NCBI GenBank assembly: GCA_033763455.1
Contig: JANRKO010000062.1
Coordinates: forward strand, 32,001 to 96,000
Length of the DNA stretch: 64,000 nucleotides
From: Polyangiaceae bacterium
Lineage (GTDB): Bacteria > Myxococcota_A > Polyangia > Polyangiales > Polyangiaceae
Direction: 5' to 3'
In this document: positions 21,355-30,024 of the stretch, one piece after another
How the letters are laid out: every line of letters starts with the position of its first letter
Numbering within the stretch: the first letter of the stretch is position 1
Notes under the pieces: generated by a model
What the model was told of the DNA's origin: nothing
The model's database searches: none
What the model saw: the letters and a program-made list of their open reading frames with translations, nothing else
Made by a program: the position numbers and the translations under genes

Positions 21355-21492
21355 CAGCTAGCTTGCTAGGCCTGCTCGCGGACGGGTGCGGGAGCTCGCA
21401 TCCGGGGATTTGAACACAAAGATCACCGATCCAAGCTATTGTCTTGGAGTAACCCTCGTTGCCTTGATGGGCCCCGAAAGAGGTGTGTTCAA

Positions 21493-23610
21493 ATGGCGAG
21501 TCAACGGCTTGGGTTAACGTGTGTAGCGTTGTTGGTGGCGGGTGTATCCGCTTGGTCGTGCAGCAGCAAGTCGCTTGAGGACTCGGCCGCACCGATGGCG
21601 TCCGCCACCGCGGAGATGCCGGGGACTGGTGGCGCCGGGATGATCGCCGTGGTGCCCATGGATCCACCGCCCAATCCTGACGTTCCGAAGGCCGCAGGCG
21701 AGGGCACGCTCACTTGTCGCCCCACGTTTGCGCCGCCCACGGTGCCCGCAATGGGCAAGATAATCTATGTAGCAAAAACCGGCAAAGATACGAATGACGG
21801 CAGCCAGCTCTCGCCGCTCGCCAGTGTCTCGAAAGCCGCTGAGCTGGCACAGCCGGGTGATACGGTGCTAGTTCGCGAGGGTATCTACCGCGGGCGCGTG
21901 GCTCCGGCGCGTGGCGGCGTTGAAGGAATGCCCATCACGTACATGGCTGAGCCGGGCAAGACGGTGGTCCTCAGAGGATCAGATGAATGGAAGCCCACCT
22001 GGGAGCCAGTGCCGGATCGGCCCAACGTCTTCAAAGCTGTGCCCGATGTTGCCATGTTCACCGACGCAAGCCAGGCGGACGGAGCGAATCCTCTGGAAAT
22101 CCAACGTAAGGATGCCAAGCCGGGCATGACACTCGGGCAGGTATTTTTGGATTCCGAACGCATGGTGCAGCAGCAAGCCCTAAACGATATCTGGAAGCGG
22201 CCTGGAACCTGGCATTACCTGGCGTCGGAAAAGGCTATTTACCTGCATTTCCCGGACGGTAAGGCACCGGGCACCGCGATGATTGAGCTGACGACGCAGA
22301 GGAGGGTTTTCGCGCCGCATGTGCGAGGGCTCGGGTACATCACGCTCAGTGGCTTCACCATCGAGCACGCGGCCAATCAAAACCCCGGGGGATTTTATGA
22401 GGGAGATGTCAAACGCAACCAAGCGGGAATGGTAGGCGTGCGTAGCGGGCACCACTGGATCATCGAGAACAACATTATTCGGTTTGCCAATTCTTTGGGT
22501 ATAGATTGCGGCGTGGAGGGCACGCCTCCAGATATCGAAAACGTGGATCAATCAGTCAAAGTGCCGAGCTTTCCAATTATTCGGAACAACGTGATCTCCG
22601 ATAATGGTACCGGCGGGATGATGTGTTGGCGCGTTCAAGACGCGCAGATTGTCAACAACGTATTCGAACGCAACAATCACCACCGGGAAACGGGGCCGGA
22701 ATCGGCCGCCATCAAATTTCACGGTTCGCAGCGAGCCCAGATTATTGGCAACCTCTTTCGAAATAACCTGGCGTTTGGCATGTACACGGACAATGGGGAC
22801 CGCGATGCTCGCATCCGGCAGAACGTGTTCTTGAATAACATGTCGGCCGGGGTATTCGTTGAGCTTCCGCGCGGGACCAACAATACCGTCGACAACAATA
22901 TTATTGTGGGCAACATCCCTAACGGGATCTACACCCACAATTCCTCCGCCGTACACGTGCTTCACAACCTGATAGCGAACAACACGGGTGACGACGACTA
23001 CGGGGCCCACGGTGAGGGCTACTTCTTGCGAAAAGTGGGGGAAGGAACCCAGCCTCCGAAGGACCACCTAGTGGTGAATAACATCTTTGCCCAGAACAAA
23101 GGTGGAGCCATCAACATTCCCTACACGTGTGGCGGTACCATCAACAATATCAGCGATTACAACGTCTATTCTGAAACGCTGCCACGCCCCTTCTTTGTCA
23201 ACGGCTACTGCCCCGATACGCAGATGATGTTGGCACCGGGTCTTCAAACGCTCGTCTTTGGGGGGCTTGGAGCCGCCGCACCGGCAGGCATCAGTGAGCT
23301 AGGATCCGGTCAGAACGCGGTTGGGCTAAATCTCGCGGAGTGGCGAGCATTCTGGGCCAGCCAGGGCGAGACTCATGACGCCAAGAGTGTGCTTTCGCCG
23401 GGGGTAAAAGCCACCGTAGATCCTCAAACACTCAAGCTCTCGCTCATGGTTGATTTCGACCCTACCACGGTAGGGTCGCAGACGGTCGCTCCGGTTACTT
23501 CCGATTTCTTTGACAAGCCGGTGCCTCAAGACGGAACCGCCAAGCCCGGCCCATTTCAGGATCTGGTGCAGGGGCAGAACGAGTTCCAGCTCTACAAGTG
23601 CGCGCCTTAG
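21493..23610 (+). CDS. Lipoprotein with right-handed parallel beta-helix (DUF1565 / GH120-like)
   Basis: Lipobox WSC, YVAKTGKDTNDGS...AQPGDTVLVREGIYR, HHWIIENN and AAIKFH with Asn-rich beta-helix repeats. Confidence 0.75.
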   Translation: MASQRLGLTCVALLVAGVSAWSCSSKSLEDSAAPMASATAEMPGTGGAGMIAVVPMDPPPNPDVPKAAGEGTLTCRPTFAPPTVPAMGKIIYVAKTGKDTNDGSQLSPLASVSKAAELAQPGDTVLVREGIYRGRVAPARGGVEGMPITYMAEPGKTVVLRGSDEWKPTWEPVPDRPNVFKAVPDVAMFTDASQADGANPLEIQRKDAKPGMTLGQVFLDSERMVQQQALNDIWKRPGTWHYLASEKAIYLHFPDGKAPGTAMIELTTQRRVFAPHVRGLGYITLSGFTIEHAANQNPGGFYEGDVKRNQAGMVGVRSGHHWIIENNIIRFANSLGIDCGVEGTPPDIENVDQSVKVPSFPIIRNNVISDNGTGGMMCWRVQDAQIVNNVFERNNHHRETGPESAAIKFHGSQRAQIIGNLFRNNLAFGMYTDNGDRDARIRQNVFLNNMSAGVFVELPRGTNNTVDNNIIVGNIPNGIYTHNSSAVHVLHNLIANNTGDDDYGAHGEGYFLRKVGEGTQPPKDHLVVNNIFAQNKGGAINIPYTCGGTINNISDYNVYSETLPRPFFVNGYCPDTQMMLAPGLQTLVFGGLGAAAPAGISELGSGQNAVGLNLAEWRAFWASQGETHDAKSVLSPGVKATVDPQTLKLSLMVDFDPTTVGSQTVAPVTSDFFDKPVPQDGTAKPGPFQDLVQGQNEFQLYKCAP

Positions 23611-24877: not shown

Positions 24878-25052
24878 TTGCCCACTTTGCGCTCACTTAG
24901 GCGGGGTTTGAAGTTCGCGGCGGACCTAGCCAAATGCGCACGGCTTTCTTACCAAGGCTTGGTGCCCACCGCTGAGCTGTGATATGCGGAGGATCGTGCG
25001 ACGTTCGACGCTGCGAGATCGCTTTCGGTAATCAGCCTTAATTGAGGCTGCC

Positions 25053-25421
25053 GTGGCGTTCTGTCTGCTGCTGCAGCTTTCCTCTGTGGCACACTTCCTT
25101 ATCGTTCGGCATGAGGCTTGCGCCGAGCACGGGGAGCTCGCGCACGTGGATACTGTCGATCTGTCGAACCTGGCTGACCAGGGTTTGCGGTCTGCGGCTC
25201 TTGCGAAGGTCGTTGCGGTTCGTAGCGGGCATTCAGGCGGTGGCCACGAGCATTGCCCGCTGGTTTCAGATCGCGCGGGGCAAACGGTACTTGTGCCCAA
25301 TTCAGTGCAAAATATCGCTGAATTGAGGCTCTCGGGGAGCGGTAGGCCTCACACTACAGCAGTCTGCTTGTCGCCGAACGCGCTTCAGCTGCTCGCACCG
25401 AAAACATCTCCGCCCGTCTGA
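25053..25421 (+). CDS. His/Cys-rich small protein, DUF2946/CruR-like leader of a metal-uptake operon
   Basis: N-terminal hydrophobic segment, HxxxVRHEACAEHGELAH, HEHCPL and C-terminal LLAPKTSPPV. GAGG precedes the GTG. Confidence 0.65.
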   Translation: MAFCLLLQLSSVAHFLIVRHEACAEHGELAHVDTVDLSNLADQGLRSAALAKVVAVRSGHSGGGHEHCPLVSDRAGQTVLVPNSVQNIAELRLSGSGRPHTTAVCLSPNALQLLAPKTSPPV

Positions 25422-25560
25422 GCGTCACCCCTCATCTACGCTACACGCAGTGCCTTCGTATTGCGTCATCGAACCCGTTCGCGCTTGGCCTACGGCCGTG
25501 CGGGCGTGTGTGTCGTCACGATAAACCTATAGATCCGCTCCAGCGCGGAGGAGAATTGCC

Positions 25561-26904
25561 ATGCGAATGTGGAAATCCACACGCATGCTGGCCACTCAAT
25601 GGAGTGCCAGCCTATGCGTATTTGTGTTGAGTCAAGTAGGGTTCGCCCAAGAAGCTGCACCGCCCAACGCTGCGACTTCGGAAGCGTCCCCTGAGAAAGC
25701 TGAAGTCGGTCCGCCAGTTCAAAACGCAGAAGAAGCCGCGGCCCGAGCCCGGGAAGAGGCTGAAATAGCCGCGGAACTGGCGAAGAATCAAGGTGCTTCG
25801 GAAGGCACAGTCGATGGGCCATCCGAGAGCAGGCAGCCGGAAGTAAGTGGAGCCTCGGCCTCATCGAACGGCCTCAGCAATTTCATGAACCCAGCCATTA
25901 GTGTCGCTGGCATCACGCTTGGGGGTGCGACTTCCAGATCCGAAAACGCGGTAGAAGGCACGCCAGATGATCTACCTACCGGCATATCGCTTCAGGAAGT
26001 GGAACTCCGCGCAAGTGCGATCGTGGACCCGTTTCTACGAGCAGACGTGAGTTTGAGCGGGAGCGTGGAAGAGGTGGGGTTTGAGGAGGCTTACATCACA
26101 ACCTTGGGCATTCCCAGGTTAACCGTGCGAGCTGGGCAGATGCGAGCAGCCCTGGGGCGACACAACCTCTTACACACCCACGCCTTCCCGTTCATCACAG
26201 CTCCGTTGCCGTGGCGAGCGCTTATCGGGCCAGAAGGGCTCACCGATGCTGGAGTCTCGGCAGAGTTGCTCCTCCCGTTGCCCTTCTACGGTGAGATCAC
26301 GGGGCAGGTTTTTCAGGGAGATTGGGCCTCTCTACAAGGTGAGATTGCGGACGACCCTTTGACGGCGGTTGATGAATCGGTGCCGGATAGGCGTAAGGAC
26401 CGTGACCTCGGTTACGTAGCACACTTGAAGACGCTTTTTGACCTCAGCGAGTCAACGACGCTTGAGCTCGGCACAAGTTACGCTGGCGGCCGCAACGGCT
26501 ATGCGGGGCTCACCTCACTCCTTGGCGGAGACGTGACGCTCAAATGGCGCCCACTGAACGCTGAGCGTTACACGGGAATCGATTGGACTACCGAATACGT
26601 ATGGTCGGATCGGGATGGCGCTCCCGTGGATCGAAAGCGGGGCGGCGGCTACTCGGCTTTGCGGTTTCAGTTCGCACAACAATGGTGGCTGCAGGCACGC
26701 GGAGCCGTGTTGGGCGTGCCTGAGGCTGAGAGTCGCCGTATTTGGCGCGGGGAAGCGCTGGCGGCTTTCGTGCCGAGTGAGTTCTCAACGGTCAGGCTTC
26801 AATATGCCTTGGAAAGACGGGAACAAAGCCCAGAACGGCCCGTGCAGGAGCTGTTCTTACAGGCCATTTTCTCGATTGGGCCACACCCAGCCCACGCCTA
26901 TTAA
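25561..26904 (+). CDS. Outer-membrane beta-barrel protein of metal-uptake operons (zinc-regulated OM receptor-like)
   Basis: Signal peptide, MNPAISV, LQEVEL...VDPF, EEAY, GRHNLLHTHAFPF, PSEFS.VRLQY and C-terminal IGPHPAHAY. Strong SD GGAGGAG. Confidence 0.75.
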   Translation: MRMWKSTRMLATQWSASLCVFVLSQVGFAQEAAPPNAATSEASPEKAEVGPPVQNAEEAAARAREEAEIAAELAKNQGASEGTVDGPSESRQPEVSGASASSNGLSNFMNPAISVAGITLGGATSRSENAVEGTPDDLPTGISLQEVELRASAIVDPFLRADVSLSGSVEEVGFEEAYITTLGIPRLTVRAGQMRAALGRHNLLHTHAFPFITAPLPWRALIGPEGLTDAGVSAELLLPLPFYGEITGQVFQGDWASLQGEIADDPLTAVDESVPDRRKDRDLGYVAHLKTLFDLSESTTLELGTSYAGGRNGYAGLTSLLGGDVTLKWRPLNAERYTGIDWTTEYVWSDRDGAPVDRKRGGGYSALRFQFAQQWWLQARGAVLGVPEAESRRIWRGEALAAFVPSEFSTVRLQYALERREQSPERPVQELFLQAIFSIGPHPAHAY

Positions 26905-26928: not shown

Positions 26929-27861
26929 ATGAGAGCTATGAAATATCTGTTCTTTACGTTGTTCGTCTGCTTTGTGGGCTTGTTCGTTACGGATCCTGCA
27001 TCAGCCGAGCTCCGCGTGGTCACTACCACCTCAGATCTTGGGTACTTTGTCCGCACTATTGGTGGAGACAAAGTGCGCGTAGATACGATTTGTCAGGGGG
27101 CCCAAGATCCACACTTTGTGCAGGCACGCCCGAGCTATATGGTAACTCTGAGTCGCGCCGACCTTTTGGTCTCGGTAGGGCTTGAGCTGGAAGTGGGTTG
27201 GCTCCCGTCTTTGATTCAGGGTGCTAGGAACCCTAACATCAAGCCGGGTAAACCTGGGTACTTGGAGGCTTCGAGGGCGGTCAAAGCGATCGATATTCCG
27301 AAGGGTCAGGTAGATCGCTCGCGGGGTGACGTTCATCCCTTCGGAAATCCACATTTTTGGCTGGATCCACTGAATGCAAAGCTTGCCTCCAGCGCCATCG
27401 CAGAGCGCATGGCAGCTCTCGATCCAAAGAACGCCGGCCTTTATCGAGCCAATCAGCGGACGTTTGAGGGAAAGCTGGATAAGAAGATGAAGGAATGGTC
27501 GGACCGCATGGCGCCATTTCGCAATACGAAGATTGTCTCCTATCACGCCACCTTCAATTACTTTCACAGGCGTTTTGGGCTCAGTGGGATCGGGTATCTG
27601 GAAGATCGTCCCGGCATTCCGCCTTCGCCTGCCCATTTGGTGGAGCTCATTCGTCAGATGAAGGAGCACAAGGTTCGGGTCATCTTCCACGAAGCTTTCT
27701 ATGATCACTCTACATCCGACATGGTTGGCGCTCGTGCGTCGGCCAAAGTGCTCGTGCTCCCAACGTCGGTAGGTGGCGCCAAAGGCGCCGACACGTATGA
27801 GCAGCTCATTGATACGTTGGTGAACCAATTCGTTGCTGCCGCCAAACAGGCCAAATCATGA
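26929..27861 (+). CDS. Metal (Zn/Mn) ABC transporter substrate-binding protein, ZnuA/TroA family
   Basis: VVTTT, QDPHF, GLELE.GWL, GNPHFWLDP, SYH..F.YF and PGIPPSPAHL. Confidence 0.9.
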   Translation: MRAMKYLFFTLFVCFVGLFVTDPASAELRVVTTTSDLGYFVRTIGGDKVRVDTICQGAQDPHFVQARPSYMVTLSRADLLVSVGLELEVGWLPSLIQGARNPNIKPGKPGYLEASRAVKAIDIPKGQVDRSRGDVHPFGNPHFWLDPLNAKLASSAIAERMAALDPKNAGLYRANQRTFEGKLDKKMKEWSDRMAPFRNTKIVSYHATFNYFHRRFGLSGIGYLEDRPGIPPSPAHLVELIRQMKEHKVRVIFHEAFYDHSTSDMVGARASAKVLVLPTSVGGAKGADTYEQLIDTLVNQFVAAAKQAKS

Positions 27862-28685
27862 TGGATGCGCTGGTTTTCCTGGGGCCAGCGCTGGCCATTT
27901 GCCTCGTAATTGCCAGCCTGCATGTCTATTTGGGCATGCACGTTTTGGCTCGTGAGGTCATTTTTGTGGATCTTTCCTTAGCGCAATTGGCGGCACTTGG
28001 GGCCACAGTTGCGGCGTTGCTTACCTCCGAAGAAGAGCCCGGGTGGCAAGCTCACGCGTTGGCTCTGGCGTTCACGATCTTGGGCGCCGCGTTGTTTGCG
28101 TTTACGCGCCGCGCGCGAAAGCAGGTGTCTCAGGAAGCCATCGTTGGGATTGTGTACGCGGTTGCGAGCGCCGTCACGGTGTTGGTTGTCAGCCACTCGC
28201 CCCATGGTGCTGAGCATATCAAAGATATCTTGGTCGGTTCGTTATTGAACACCACCTGGGCAAACGTGTGGCAGACAGCCGCAGCCTATGTGGTGTTGGG
28301 CGCCGTGCAGCTGGCCCTAGCAAAACGCTTCATCACCATTTCCTGGCAACCAGACGAAGCGGAGGCTGCGAGCCGGTTTGTGGCGTGGTGGGATTTTGGG
28401 TTTTACGTGTTGTTCGGTTTGATGATCACGATCAGCGTTCAGTTTGCCGGGATCCTCTTGGTATTTTCGTATCTCATCGTGCCGGCGCTCATCACCCGGC
28501 TGTACCTGAACCGGCTACTTCCACGGCTGTTCGCTGGCTGGGGTGTGGCGACGGCCGGGAGCTTGCTCGGGCTCTCGGCCTCGTGGGTGTGGGATTTCCC
28601 AACGGGAGCGGCCATCGTTGCCGCGTTTGGCGCGCTGCTGGCTGTAGCAGCGTTGGGGCGCCTGCTGGCGCCCAGTCGGGCGTAA
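27858..28685 (+). CDS. Metal ABC transporter permease, ZnuB/MntB family
   Basis: YLGMHVLAREVIFVDL, EAIVGIVY and GILLVFSYLIVPA. ATGA overlap with the binding-protein gene. Confidence 0.88.
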   Translation: MMDALVFLGPALAICLVIASLHVYLGMHVLAREVIFVDLSLAQLAALGATVAALLTSEEEPGWQAHALALAFTILGAALFAFTRRARKQVSQEAIVGIVYAVASAVTVLVVSHSPHGAEHIKDILVGSLLNTTWANVWQTAAAYVVLGAVQLALAKRFITISWQPDEAEAASRFVAWWDFGFYVLFGLMITISVQFAGILLVFSYLIVPALITRLYLNRLLPRLFAGWGVATAGSLLGLSASWVWDFPTGAAIVAAFGALLAVAALGRLLAPSRA

Positions 28686-28693
28686 AACCCCGC

Positions 28694-29671
28694 TTACGGG
28701 TTGGAGGCGCCAGGCGTCACCTCGGGTGTCACAGAGAAGTTGCCGGTGCCATTGGGGCGGCGCCCGTAGCTGGTCGTTACATCCGCCGGGAAGTCGACTG
28801 CATCGAGCTGCGTTTGGCTGGAATTAAACAGGTAAATCGTCTCGCCTGAGTTGCTCACCGCGAACGTGCCTTTGTAGCACCCTTCCCCCACATCTTCACA
28901 CTGCGCAGCGGAGAGCGGGCCTGAACTATTGTTGTCACTCACTGCTAACAGTACCACGTAGTGCCCCGGTTGAAGCAGGGTTCCGTTCGGAAAGACGAAG
29001 GGATTCGCGAGGTCGGGCTCGTCGCTGTTAGTATCGGTTACAAGGTAACCACTCAGGTTTGCCACCGCATTGCCGGCGTTGTATAGCTCGACAAAATCAG
29101 GAGCATTGCCGCGAATCTCATTGATGACCACCTTGGGCATCAGAGCTTGTGCGCCACCGGTTCCGAACCCGCCGGAAGTTCCACCGCTAGCTGTGTTTCC
29201 GCCTGAGGAGTTGCCGCTCCCGCCGAGCCCGAGCTGGCCCCCGCTCGCGTTACCTCCTGTCGATGTGGCTCCACCACTTGCTCCTAGGTTGCCTCCGGTC
29301 GCTGAGTTGCTGCCACCCGTGTCGGGTCCCGCGTTGGTCCCGCCTGCTCCAAGTACGCCGCCAGTGCCGACGTTTGCTCCGCCTCCCGAACTCGGTGCCT
29401 CGGAAGGATTGCCGCCCGCGGAAGGTGTTGGATTAGCGGAGCCTCCCAGGCTTGGCGAAAAGCCTCCGCTGCCCGCTCTCACGCCGCCGGTTCCGCTAGC
29501 GCCACCTGCTGAGGTTCCCGGTGTGTTCGGCAAAACACTCGGCGAAGTGAATGTCGCGTCAGGCGGGGTGCTGCAGGCCAGAAACCCGATGATGCCGAGA
29601 GCCAAGAGCGGCGTTGCGGGTGCCAGACGTTTTCGCGTTCCGCCGCGAGGGCGAAGGGACGGGGGCGCCAT
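28694..29671 (-). CDS. Lipoprotein with Gly/Ser linker and lamin-tail domain
   Basis: Lipobox FLAC, VVINEI...DFVELYN...LSGY.VTD, SNSGETIYL, SYGRRPNG and TPGASN. Confidence 0.8.
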   Translation of the reverse strand: MAPPSLRPRGGTRKRLAPATPLLALGIIGFLACSTPPDATFTSPSVLPNTPGTSAGGASGTGGVRAGSGGFSPSLGGSANPTPSAGGNPSEAPSSGGGANVGTGGVLGAGGTNAGPDTGGSNSATGGNLGASGGATSTGGNASGGQLGLGGSGNSSGGNTASGGTSGGFGTGGAQALMPKVVINEIRGNAPDFVELYNAGNAVANLSGYLVTDTNSDEPDLANPFVFPNGTLLQPGHYVVLLAVSDNNSSGPLSAAQCEDVGEGCYKGTFAVSNSGETIYLFNSSQTQLDAVDFPADVTTSYGRRPNGTGNFSVTPEVTPGASNP

Positions 29672-30024
29672 GATACGCGAATAAGCCACGAGATTTAGGT
29701 GGCGGCAAGGCGGGCCCCAACAGGGACGTTCTGACAGTTGCGGGGGCCCCGTGGGGTGAGATTCGGAACCCCGGCCGCCCTGGGTCGGGTAGAATGGCGG
29801 AAATCCTACGGTTGGGCTTCACGCTGAATTCAGCCAGGATTGCTGAAATAGTCCTAGGTTTCGGCGATTTGACCCCTCGCACAGCCAGCCCGAGGGGGTT
29901 CGGCGAAATAAGAATGGAACGCGGGGGCGGAATTCAGGGTACGGTGTTCGGAATAAGTGTACGCAGCTCTCGTTGCAGCCACTTTGGTGGCAACGGGCAG
30001 CGTATTTTCAAAGGCAGTGCAAAA

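Follow-up and report, generated by a model that had tools for sequence, protein, structure and literature searches.

To our knowledge, only two metal-sensing arrest peptides have been studied so far, namely, the copper-responsive CruR and CutF, and the motifs proven for this class all need either an Arg-x-Pro-Pro sequence or a Pro triplet. Here we analyze a small leader open reading frame (ORF) that ends in a different sequence, APKxSPP, and that is located directly upstream of metal uptake genes in a Polyangiaceae bacterium (GenBank assembly GCA_033763455.1, contig JANRKO010000062.1, positions 32,001 to 96,000 of the forward strand). This stretch of 64,000 nucleotides (nt) will be referred to as the window, and its first nucleotide is position 1. 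With a probability of about 0.55, we favor the reading that this leader is a divergent nascent-chain metal sensor of the CruR/CutF type, probably for zinc, that uses an arrest motif devoid of Arg and heads a zinc uptake operon. The arrest of the ribosome, zinc as the metal, the direction of the response, and the step at which output is controlled are what we infer.

In the available text of Roy et al. (2022; PMC9426467), DUF2946 proteins are described as having a predicted export signal, a CXXC motif, and an RAPP sequence three residues from the end, whereas their genes head operons of TonB receptors or PepSY proteins and are followed by long intergenic regions. According to the same text, the spacing between CXXC and RAPP is fixed in CruR, and copper relieves the arrest, after which Rho terminates transcription. 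The accessible part of Fujiwara et al. (2025; PMC12992588) places the arrest of CruR in vitro at RAPP, where the codons of the Pro pair occupy the P and A sites. For CutF, the text at hand of Ozturk et al. (10.1101/2025.02.05.636593) reports that copper binding causes a stall at PPP, which melts a stem-loop over the ribosome-binding site (RBS) of cutO. A total of 5334 "CutF-like" proteins were clustered by Ozturk et al. (2023; PMC9973294), and the sections available mention that some of them have His-only sites and are encoded beside Ni/Co genes.

The translation bears out the elements listed in the initial annotation of the window, namely, an ORF of 122 amino acids (aa) with a hydrophobic N terminus (MAFCLLLQLSSVAHFLIV), a His/Cys cluster, an HEHC site, and the C-terminal end LLAPKTSPPV-stop. 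These motifs are not due to chance: across 150 aligned relatives, they show little or no variation against a mean column identity of 20%. H20, C23, G27, C68, A115, K117, S119, P120, and P121 are invariant in this alignment, and H14, H26, H65, H67, and P116 are conserved in at least 90% of the sequences; the second site reads H-[ED]-H-C. The APKxSPP end is present in 151 of 152 relatives, the exception being ASKTSPP, and a further relative with APKLAPP was found at genome locus L031. Counted from the PP end, conservation is limited to positions -12 to -1 (1.6 to 4.3 bits; consensus A-L-[LY]-L-L-A-P-K-x-S-P-P), and positions -13 to -30 are Ala/Pro/Ser-rich with 0.6 to 1.3 bits; judged from the alignment, such a restriction is typical of an arrest peptide. 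In 96 of 153 sequences, PP is followed by a single residue, which is mostly Ala or Val, and the longest tails comprise 11 residues. Since all codons of the motif vary synonymously among 22 loci (Ala GCN, Pro CCN, and Ser TCN), selection acts on the peptide. The stop codons of these 22 leaders are TGA (16), TAG (4), and TAA (2).

A further property of the family is a molecular ruler. The Cys of HxHC and the first Pro are separated by 49 to 55 residues in all 149 sequences scored, and by 51 to 53 residues in 128 of them, with four sequences that have variant second motifs left unscored. This linker is thus fixed in length but not conserved in sequence. In the same proteins, the distance between the first and second ligand motifs varies from 35 to 60 residues, and this contrast argues against the ruler being merely a by-product of profile selection. 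An Arg/Lys-bearing extension precedes the hydrophobic helix in 124 of 153 relatives, with a mean of 3.5 K/R versus 0.5 D/E, and the charged extension together with the helix has the pattern expected of an export signal or an N-in anchor. The AlphaFold2 model obtained with the 150-sequence alignment has a mean predicted local distance difference test (pLDDT) score of 72.0; it contains a confident helix (residues 2 to 17) and a confident hairpin around the first ligand cluster (residues 20 to 31; pLDDT 81 to 97), as well as a short, likewise confident helix (residues 108 to 114) directly before APK. No helix or strand is predicted between residues 32 and 107, and 10-residue pLDDT means range from 49 to 74 over residues 31 to 100. 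Because this part is modeled without secondary structure and with lower confidence, the prediction does not point to a globular domain.

The leader ORF is a member of a large unnamed family. A word-indexed search retrieved 4 relatives, and a profile built from these matched 2188 of 1.84 billion cluster representatives at E ≤ 1e-3 and 229 at E ≤ 1e-10. None of the relatives has a name or a Pfam annotation, and the same holds for all 28 relatives retrieved with P0077, the most DUF2946-like member. Copies were found in 18 of 61 related genomes, its own included, and, in a sample of 301 genomes from the whole phylum, in 106 (100 of the 273 with good quality and 74 of 209 genera), usually as one copy each. 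The named contigs that carry the gene are assigned to Polyangiales, Polyangiaceae, Sandaracinaceae, Polyangia, "Myxococcales," and Archangiaceae metagenome-assembled genomes (MAGs), plus two Planctomycetota MAGs, and the commonest taxon of the nearest ESM Atlas clusters is Myxococcota, from which we take the phylum to be Myxococcota. The genome of the window has a single copy according to the profile search, in which the other three matches have E > 0.3. Paralogues were also sought with a degenerate DNA pattern for APKxSPP, which occurs at 6 places in this genome, but only that of the leader ends a homologous ORF.

The family is linked to metal transport. Up to 8 kb downstream of the leader was inspected at 16 of 17 loci from relatives, one being omitted since the contig ends inside the gene, at 10 named loci, and in the window. 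Of the 16, L031 (missed by the first pattern), L037 (a doubtful match), and L024 and L028 (contig end) were left out, which leaves 23 assessable loci. At 10 of these, the next gene on the same strand encodes a homologue of the 447-aa porin-like protein of the window (phmmer E values of 6e-198 to 6e-16), and in 8 of these 10 cases it is followed by ZnuA and an ABC-3 permease, whereas the other 2 stop at the contig end. A TonB-dependent receptor with an N-terminal TonB_C domain is directly next at another 10 loci. At the remaining loci, a 228-aa ORF followed by a TonB-dependent receptor, ZnuC-ZnuB, and no nameable neighbor (L026) were found once each. Uptake genes are therefore present at 22 of the 23 loci, on the same strand and 20 to 289 nt downstream. 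These gaps extend to the earliest start codon in the longest ORF, so that some downstream starts may be wrong. In all 22 of these loci, the leader is the first gene of the operon. The initial annotation had staked its proposal on a link of the homologues with metal transport and had placed a metal uptake operon directly downstream of the ORF; the link is borne out by the 22 loci, and the operon by the same-strand genes for the porin-like barrel, ZnuA, and the ABC-3 permease.

The proteins of this operon point primarily to zinc. The nearest solved chain to the ZnuA-type protein is Synechocystis ZnuA (2ov1; E = 2.1e-27), and the His residues of its DPH, PHFW, and YHA motifs align with His residues of that protein, which we take to be zinc ligands. 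The best NCBIfam model is AztC, with 130.6 bits against a cutoff of 350, and all equivalog scores are below their cutoffs. Of the Zn/Mn/Ni range initially proposed, zinc is therefore preferred, on the basis of the nearest solved relative and the three aligned His residues. The 447-aa protein has 141 homologues, none of which is named. Its model has 16 strands (pLDDT 84.6), and its best Foldseek matches are a chitoporin (5mdo; E = 4.6e-11) and OprP (2o4v; E = 7.3e-10). H205, H207, H442, and H445 are invariant, and the protein ends in GPHPAHAY. Members of this porin-like family always sit between the leader and ZnuA, and one homologue, P0237, has an N-terminal TonB_C domain. The TonB-dependent receptors at L025, L027, L030, L033, L036, L044, L045, L047, L048, and L050 have an N-terminal TonB_C domain in an MxcH-like arrangement; the likeness is confined to this N-terminal architecture, and the scores are far under the MxcH cutoff. 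Several of the TonB_C-fused receptors are followed by ExbB/TonB genes.

An ATPase gene is absent from the operon of the window, since the next ORF (28694 to 29689) is on the opposite strand. ZnuA and ZnuB without ZnuC also occur in two same-genus genomes; in other genera, the ATPase gene lies between ZnuA and ZnuB, and the six porin-ZnuA loci outside the genus of the window all carry an ABC ATPase. The genes that flank the region encode a 723-aa beta-helix protein (NosD-like; 21439 to 23610) and a Gly/Ser-rich lamin-tail-domain protein (28694 to 29689), neither of which has an evident operon link.

The comparison with DUF2946 reveals a relationship that is remote but spans the whole length of the protein. 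The corresponding Pfam profile, PF11162, matches 48 of 150 family members at E ≤ 10, with a best E value of 1.1e-4, whereas 21 other Pfam families match one relative each. These matches are full-length and collinear, as illustrated by P0077, of which residues 3 to 116 align with positions 13 to 112 of the 117-position profile, and a DUF2946 cluster was found in the ESM Atlas at a score of 0.93. Instead of CXXC, the family has H-[ED]-H-C, which retains the second Cys alone and starts with His in at least 90% of the sequences. Instead of RAPP, which was found in none of the relatives listed, it has APKxSPP, but a fixed ligand-to-PP spacing like that of DUF2946 is present. The same profile identified no protein above its cutoff in the 61 related genomes, where its hits were at noise level, or in the 301 phylum genomes, although a Caulobacter control was positive. 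We read the leader family as a divergent sister of DUF2946 with the same layout and ruler. By model score, CXXC, and RAPP, it lies outside Pfam DUF2946, but by its layout and context, it appears to work like a member. At one locus, L041 (G048:C1159), the minus strand (1228 to 1806) encodes a Cys-rich small ORF with a hydrophobic N terminus and an ...IYRPPRV end; it has a sub-threshold DUF2946 match of 19.5 bits and may be another leader type in the same order.

The parallel with CruR that had been drawn for the ORF extends across the family, which combines a hydrophobic N terminus, metal ligands, a fixed spacer, and a C-terminal PP in a gene that comes first before metal uptake genes. Like CruR (Bp2923) of Bordetella pertussis, the leader is a small first gene of a metal uptake operon, is followed by a long intergenic region, and precedes an outer membrane importer. 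The two ligand motifs agree in their x-x register (CXXC in CruR and HxHC here), and as far as the available descriptions of CruR go, the spacing to PP is similar: 45 residues between CXXC and RAPP in CruR compare with 46 between HEHC and APK here, and 48 residues between Cys and the first Pro compare with 52. In both cases, the PP motif is close to the stop, at a distance of 1 to 3 residues; across the leader family, this distance ranges from 1 to 11 residues. In contrast to CruR, the ligands are His3Cys plus HxHC rather than CXXC, and the APKxSPP tail has an invariant Lys and no Arg. The neighbors are ZnuA/ZnuB, a porin-like barrel, or TonB_C-fused receptors, whereas those of CruR are the CrtA/PepSY copper genes. 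Furthermore, no Rho-type output signal was found in the intergenic skew, and the family occurs in a phylum in which PF11162 detected nothing in 301 genomes.

Links also emerge with CutF and with the RAPP-type arrest peptides. Judged by the accessible part of PMC9973294, the leader family falls within the operational filters that Ozturk et al. used for CutF-like proteins, whose clusters likewise include His-only sites and non-copper neighbors. It was initially proposed that the leader represents an undescribed class of sensor, which is too strong a claim: His-only and non-copper CutF-like clusters have already been published in that study, at least in the part available, and the family is better considered a divergent offshoot of an established type. 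The candidate stall-site codons of the window are predicted to pair with the RBS of the next gene, which resembles the cutF-cutO stem-loop of Rhodobacter capsulatus. However, CutF has CxxxC and PPP and controls a detoxifying oxidase, and metal induces its stall, so that the opposite logic is expected for a leader whose cargo is an importer. With ApdA, ApdP, and the RAGP of SecM, the family shares a PP near the C terminus of a small protein that has a known or putative localization signal and is encoded upstream of the regulated gene, and as in the RAPP/RGPP-type peptides, a short conserved stretch is located N-terminal of the core. In contrast to the RAPP-type peptides, the family has a variable residue where these need Arg, with an invariant Lys one residue upstream and an equally invariant Ala-Pro before it. 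The RSPP sequence, in the available text of PMC12992588, is partially permissive for arrest in ApdA and ApdP.

A mechanism can be proposed by analogy. During synthesis, the last 12 residues, ALQLL-APKTSPP, would occupy the upper exit tunnel, and the ribosome would stall at Pro-Pro while P120 occupies the P site and P121 the A site, an arrangement established for CruR by toeprinting. Since HxHC is fixed at about 52 residues behind the stall point, it would just have emerged from the ribosome, and the H-x5-H-x2-C-x2-H cluster would sit at the end of the N-terminal helix. The stalled ribosome would cover the last codons of the leader, which in the window are predicted to form a helix with the Shine-Dalgarno sequence and the AUG of the porin gene; as long as the stall lasts, the porin initiation site would thereby stay open, and the uptake genes would be translated. 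When zinc is sufficient, metal binding to, or folding of, the ligand sites would pull on the chain and free the stall; the ribosome would then terminate, the helix would re-form, and expression would drop, which is a CruR-type logic for an uptake system. The proposed direction, i.e., a stall when zinc is scarce and release upon binding, is deduced from the fact that an importer is controlled, as in the case of CruR. The zinc-dependent folding of a small nascent domain, a zinc finger, reportedly releases the SecM stall.

The helix invoked in this mechanism is a predicted one. In the minimum-free-energy fold of 25385 to 25580, 22 pairs join the end of the leader to the porin initiation region, with a duplex energy of -28.4 kcal/mol. 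UCUCC-G-CCC (Ser119 to Pro121) pairs with GGAGGAG, the stop region with CGCUC, and CUCGCA with the AUG region. The summed pair probability of 18.8 was reached by none of the 60 shuffles of the leader end, whose mean is 6.2, and the long helix is lost when 25397 to 25430 is forced to be unpaired. In this model, a ribosome held at Pro120/Pro121 would cover one helix strand, which would be an output of the CutF/SecM type. The fold of the whole region (25385 to 25580) is not more stable than that of shuffled sequences (z = -1.17). No intrinsic terminator was found on the plus strand between the leader and the porin-like gene. A conserved intergenic structure was also considered and discarded, as the intergenic regions of the window and of same-genus loci do not align (about 50% identity); in a single pair, G001 and G003, identity is 90.8% in the intergenic region and 85.5% in the leader. 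The features of the locus are compiled in the table.

Table. Features of the leader locus, in window coordinates
Feature	Coordinates	Strand	Basis
Codons of the ancestral N-terminal Arg-rich region (MRRIVRRSTLRDRFR), cut off from the ORF by a stop	24984..25028	+	Homologue alignment
In-frame TAA interrupting the full-length leader ORF; CAA in related contigs	25029..25031	+	Sequence, contigs
GAGG, Shine-Dalgarno-like, 5 nt before GTG 25053	25044..25047	+	Seen in the sequence
Leader ORF as called, 122 aa, GTG start, TGA stop	25053..25421	+	ORF list and family conservation
First metal-ligand cluster, H14-x5-H20-x2-C23-x2-H26-G27...H31, at the end of the hydrophobic helix	25092..25145	+	Alignment and model
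Second ligand site, HEHC, residues 65 to 68; HxxC register comparable to the CXXC of DUF2946	25245..25256	+	Alignment
Conserved C-terminal 12 residues, ALQLL-APKTSPP, candidate arrest sequence (APKTSPP, 25395-25415)	25380..25415	+	Information content
5' strand of the predicted long-range helix, leader codons L114 to stop plus 3 nt	25393..25424	+	22 pairs
Intergenic region between leader and porin-like gene, 139 nt	25422..25560	+	Sequence
3' strand of the predicted helix, with Shine-Dalgarno sequence GGAGGAGA (25547-25554) and porin ATG (25561-25563)	25536..25566	+	Pair list
Porin-like outer membrane barrel, 447 aa	25561..26904	+	Model, Foldseek; no Pfam/NCBIfam match
ZnuA-type periplasmic metal-binding protein	26929..27861	+	PF01297, E 2.7e-57
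ZnuB-type ABC-3 permease	27858..28685	+	PF00950, E 4e-26

Several observations weigh against a metal-sensing arrest peptide. The Arg of RAPP is essential in the proven cases: in the available text of PMC12992588, all substitutions of R131 in ApdP raised reporter activity, and R139A in CruR abolished the arrest. The equivalent position is variable in the leader family (T in 56%, S in 15%, and N in 14%), and the invariant Lys is one residue further from PP. No member reaches the gathering score of PF11162, the best having 22.9 of the 23.7 bits needed (9 of 74 relatives are at E ≤ 0.02), and the protein of the window does not match this profile even at E ≤ 10. The uniformity of the 150 top relatives is partly circular, because they were chosen by a profile that contains the motifs. 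The RBS-hiding helix is not conserved and was rejected as a feature of the family: among 21 loci, it surpasses shuffled sequences at a level of at most 1 in 60 only in the window, L043, and L051, and it is not above shuffles in the two same-genus loci, although uncertain downstream start codons may hide some cases. A Rho-dependent output of the CruR type is unsupported, because the bias toward C over G in the intergenic regions does not exceed that of the adjoining coding DNA; a Rho-loading site was rejected accordingly, with an intergenic C-G skew of 0.044 compared with 0.090 in the leader and 0.053 in the downstream gene. Finally, the copy of the window lacks its Arg-rich N-terminal region due to a TAA codon, so that this copy may be impaired unless the T is an assembly error.

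The absence of the Arg of proven arrest motifs is also what would be expected if the leader were a stable, membrane-anchored or exported small metal-binding protein that serves as an accessory protein or chaperone of the outer membrane importer. APKxSPP would then be a docking or processing motif, and the co-location would reflect a shared function and not regulation in cis. The N-terminal part, i.e., the helix and the hairpin, is indeed the best predicted section of the protein, four ligands are conserved as in a real metal site, the Arg/Lys-bearing extension of most relatives resembles an export or anchor signal, and many of the downstream receptors carry at their N terminus TonB_C, a peptide-binding fold. 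However, residues 32 to 107 have neither a predicted structure nor conservation, and yet the length of the second linker is fixed; the tail of 1 to 11 residues after PP argues against the recognition of a free C terminus. In addition, the gene is the first of the operon wherever an uptake neighbor was identified, and CruR and CutF, which are the only characterized relatives, work in cis through their nascent chains. We consider this explanation unlikely.

Opening of the helix over the porin RBS would not require an arrest, since any ribosome that reads 25393 to 25424 would open it, stalled or not. The leader might then only provide translational coupling or a constitutive Pro-Pro pause, with the metal response located elsewhere, for example, in a Zur-type repressor at an unrecognized promoter, and with another role for the His/Cys sites. 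SPP with Ala or Val after it is not known to be one of the strongest pause contexts that depend on elongation factor P (EF-P), and a promoter may have escaped detection, as the sigma-70 scan, which found none, does not cover the promoters of this phylum. Plain coupling, however, would call neither for a motif of 7 invariant residues nor for two conserved ligand sites and a spacer fixed at 52 residues. Within the 260 nt upstream of the leader, no 8-mer is shared by more than 6 of 22 loci, and AT-containing palindromes occur in only 4 of 22 loci, none of them shared; although these tests are crude, they revealed no common operator. Such a coupling function is highly improbable in our view. Two other roles were examined and rejected: no maturation enzymes recur beside the leader gene, as a precursor of a ribosomally synthesized and post-translationally modified peptide (RiPP) or a metallophore would require, and the motif is not followed by the transmembrane segment and Arg-rich tail that define a MYXO-CTERM-type sorting signal. 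Upstream of the leader, a perfect palindrome, ACCAAG-G-CTTGGT, is present at 24951 to 24963, 102 nt upstream of GTG 25053, between the leader and a divergent 412-aa gene; it is not common to other loci. The 10-mer AATTGAGGCT occurs twice, at 25040 to 25049 in the leader start region and at 25322 to 25331 inside the leader, probably by chance.

The window copy deserves separate consideration, as the leader ORF as called is truncated at its N terminus. The sequence from ATG 24984 onward aligns residue for residue with the Arg/Lys-rich start of the proteins of the same-genus genomes G001 and G003, and the family profile matches the genome from 24999 to 25418, across a single TAA. Position 25029 is C instead of T, which gives CAA, in all three related metagenome contigs that cover the site (runs X1, X2, and X3); these are public runs from two studies with a low depth of 2.8 to 6.6, and the assembly may stem from one of them. 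No RNA run was listed as containing the locus. The T may be an error; otherwise, the strain makes the short form from GTG 25053. A further explanation, which applies to this copy only, is that it is a nonsense mutant (CAA to TAA) that is no longer functional, or that the T was introduced during assembly, in which case the real gene has 145 codons from ATG 24984. It agrees with the C in all three contigs, with the preserved alignment of the codons upstream of TAA, and with the fact that this is the sole match with an internal stop among the about 120 phylum matches listed. On the other hand, the GTG, with GAGG 5 nt upstream, lies 7 codons past the stop, and all conserved residues downstream are intact. 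The signal peptide of CruR could moreover be replaced with regulation kept, as stated in the available text of PMC9426467. The X1 variant is also identical to the window over 374 nt, from the second half of the leader through the intergenic region into the beginning of the porin gene. Overall, a loss of function or an assembly error in the window copy appears distinctly unlikely. The X1 contig, which is 95 to 99% similar, has 24 differences in 664 nt, of which 22 fall within leader residues 6 to 58 (25068 to 25226) and none within 25227 to 25600, a block that extends from HEHC through the second linker, APKTSPP, and the intergenic stretch to the porin start. A hypervariable patch thus adjoins a frozen block in this comparison.

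The literature was searched for related reports. No paper contained the motif strings of the leader in a bacterial context, nothing was found on a zinc-linked arrest peptide, on an arrest peptide associated with znuA, or, among the papers listed, on ribosome stalling in zinc uptake, and the literature retrieved on DUF2946 or CutF-like proteins did not cover this leader family. The word "zinc" is absent from the main texts of PMC9426467, PMC9973294, and PMC12992588, and a znuA link is likewise unmentioned in the main text of PMC9973294. Members of the leader family may nevertheless be among the CutF-like clusters of File S1 of PMC9973294.

If the nascent-chain sensor is combined with its consequences for the phylum, a broader proposal emerges that we put forward tentatively, as its chances are somewhat below even. 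APKxSPP and the short hydrophobic helix would constitute a new Arg-free arrest sequence, and a zinc-sensing nascent chain, with a His3Cys site and an HxHC site held 52 residues from the stall point, would gate zinc import across the outer membrane via a His-lined porin plus ZnuABC or via TonB_C-fused receptors. This would occur in about a third of Myxococcota genomes, where the family would replace canonical DUF2946, and without a recognizable Zur-type operator. If true, the family would offer a sharply defined, invariant alternative motif for an arrest without Arg and a natural system in which zinc is sensed by a nascent chain with a fixed ruler. It would also provide the first functional context for an unnamed family of His-lined porins and for the TonB_C-fused receptors in Myxococcota. 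Should no arrest be found, the family would still represent many small envelope proteins that bind metal, lack any annotation, and are associated with zinc import; if the proposal holds, zinc uptake in this phylum would be controlled at least partly at the post-transcriptional level.

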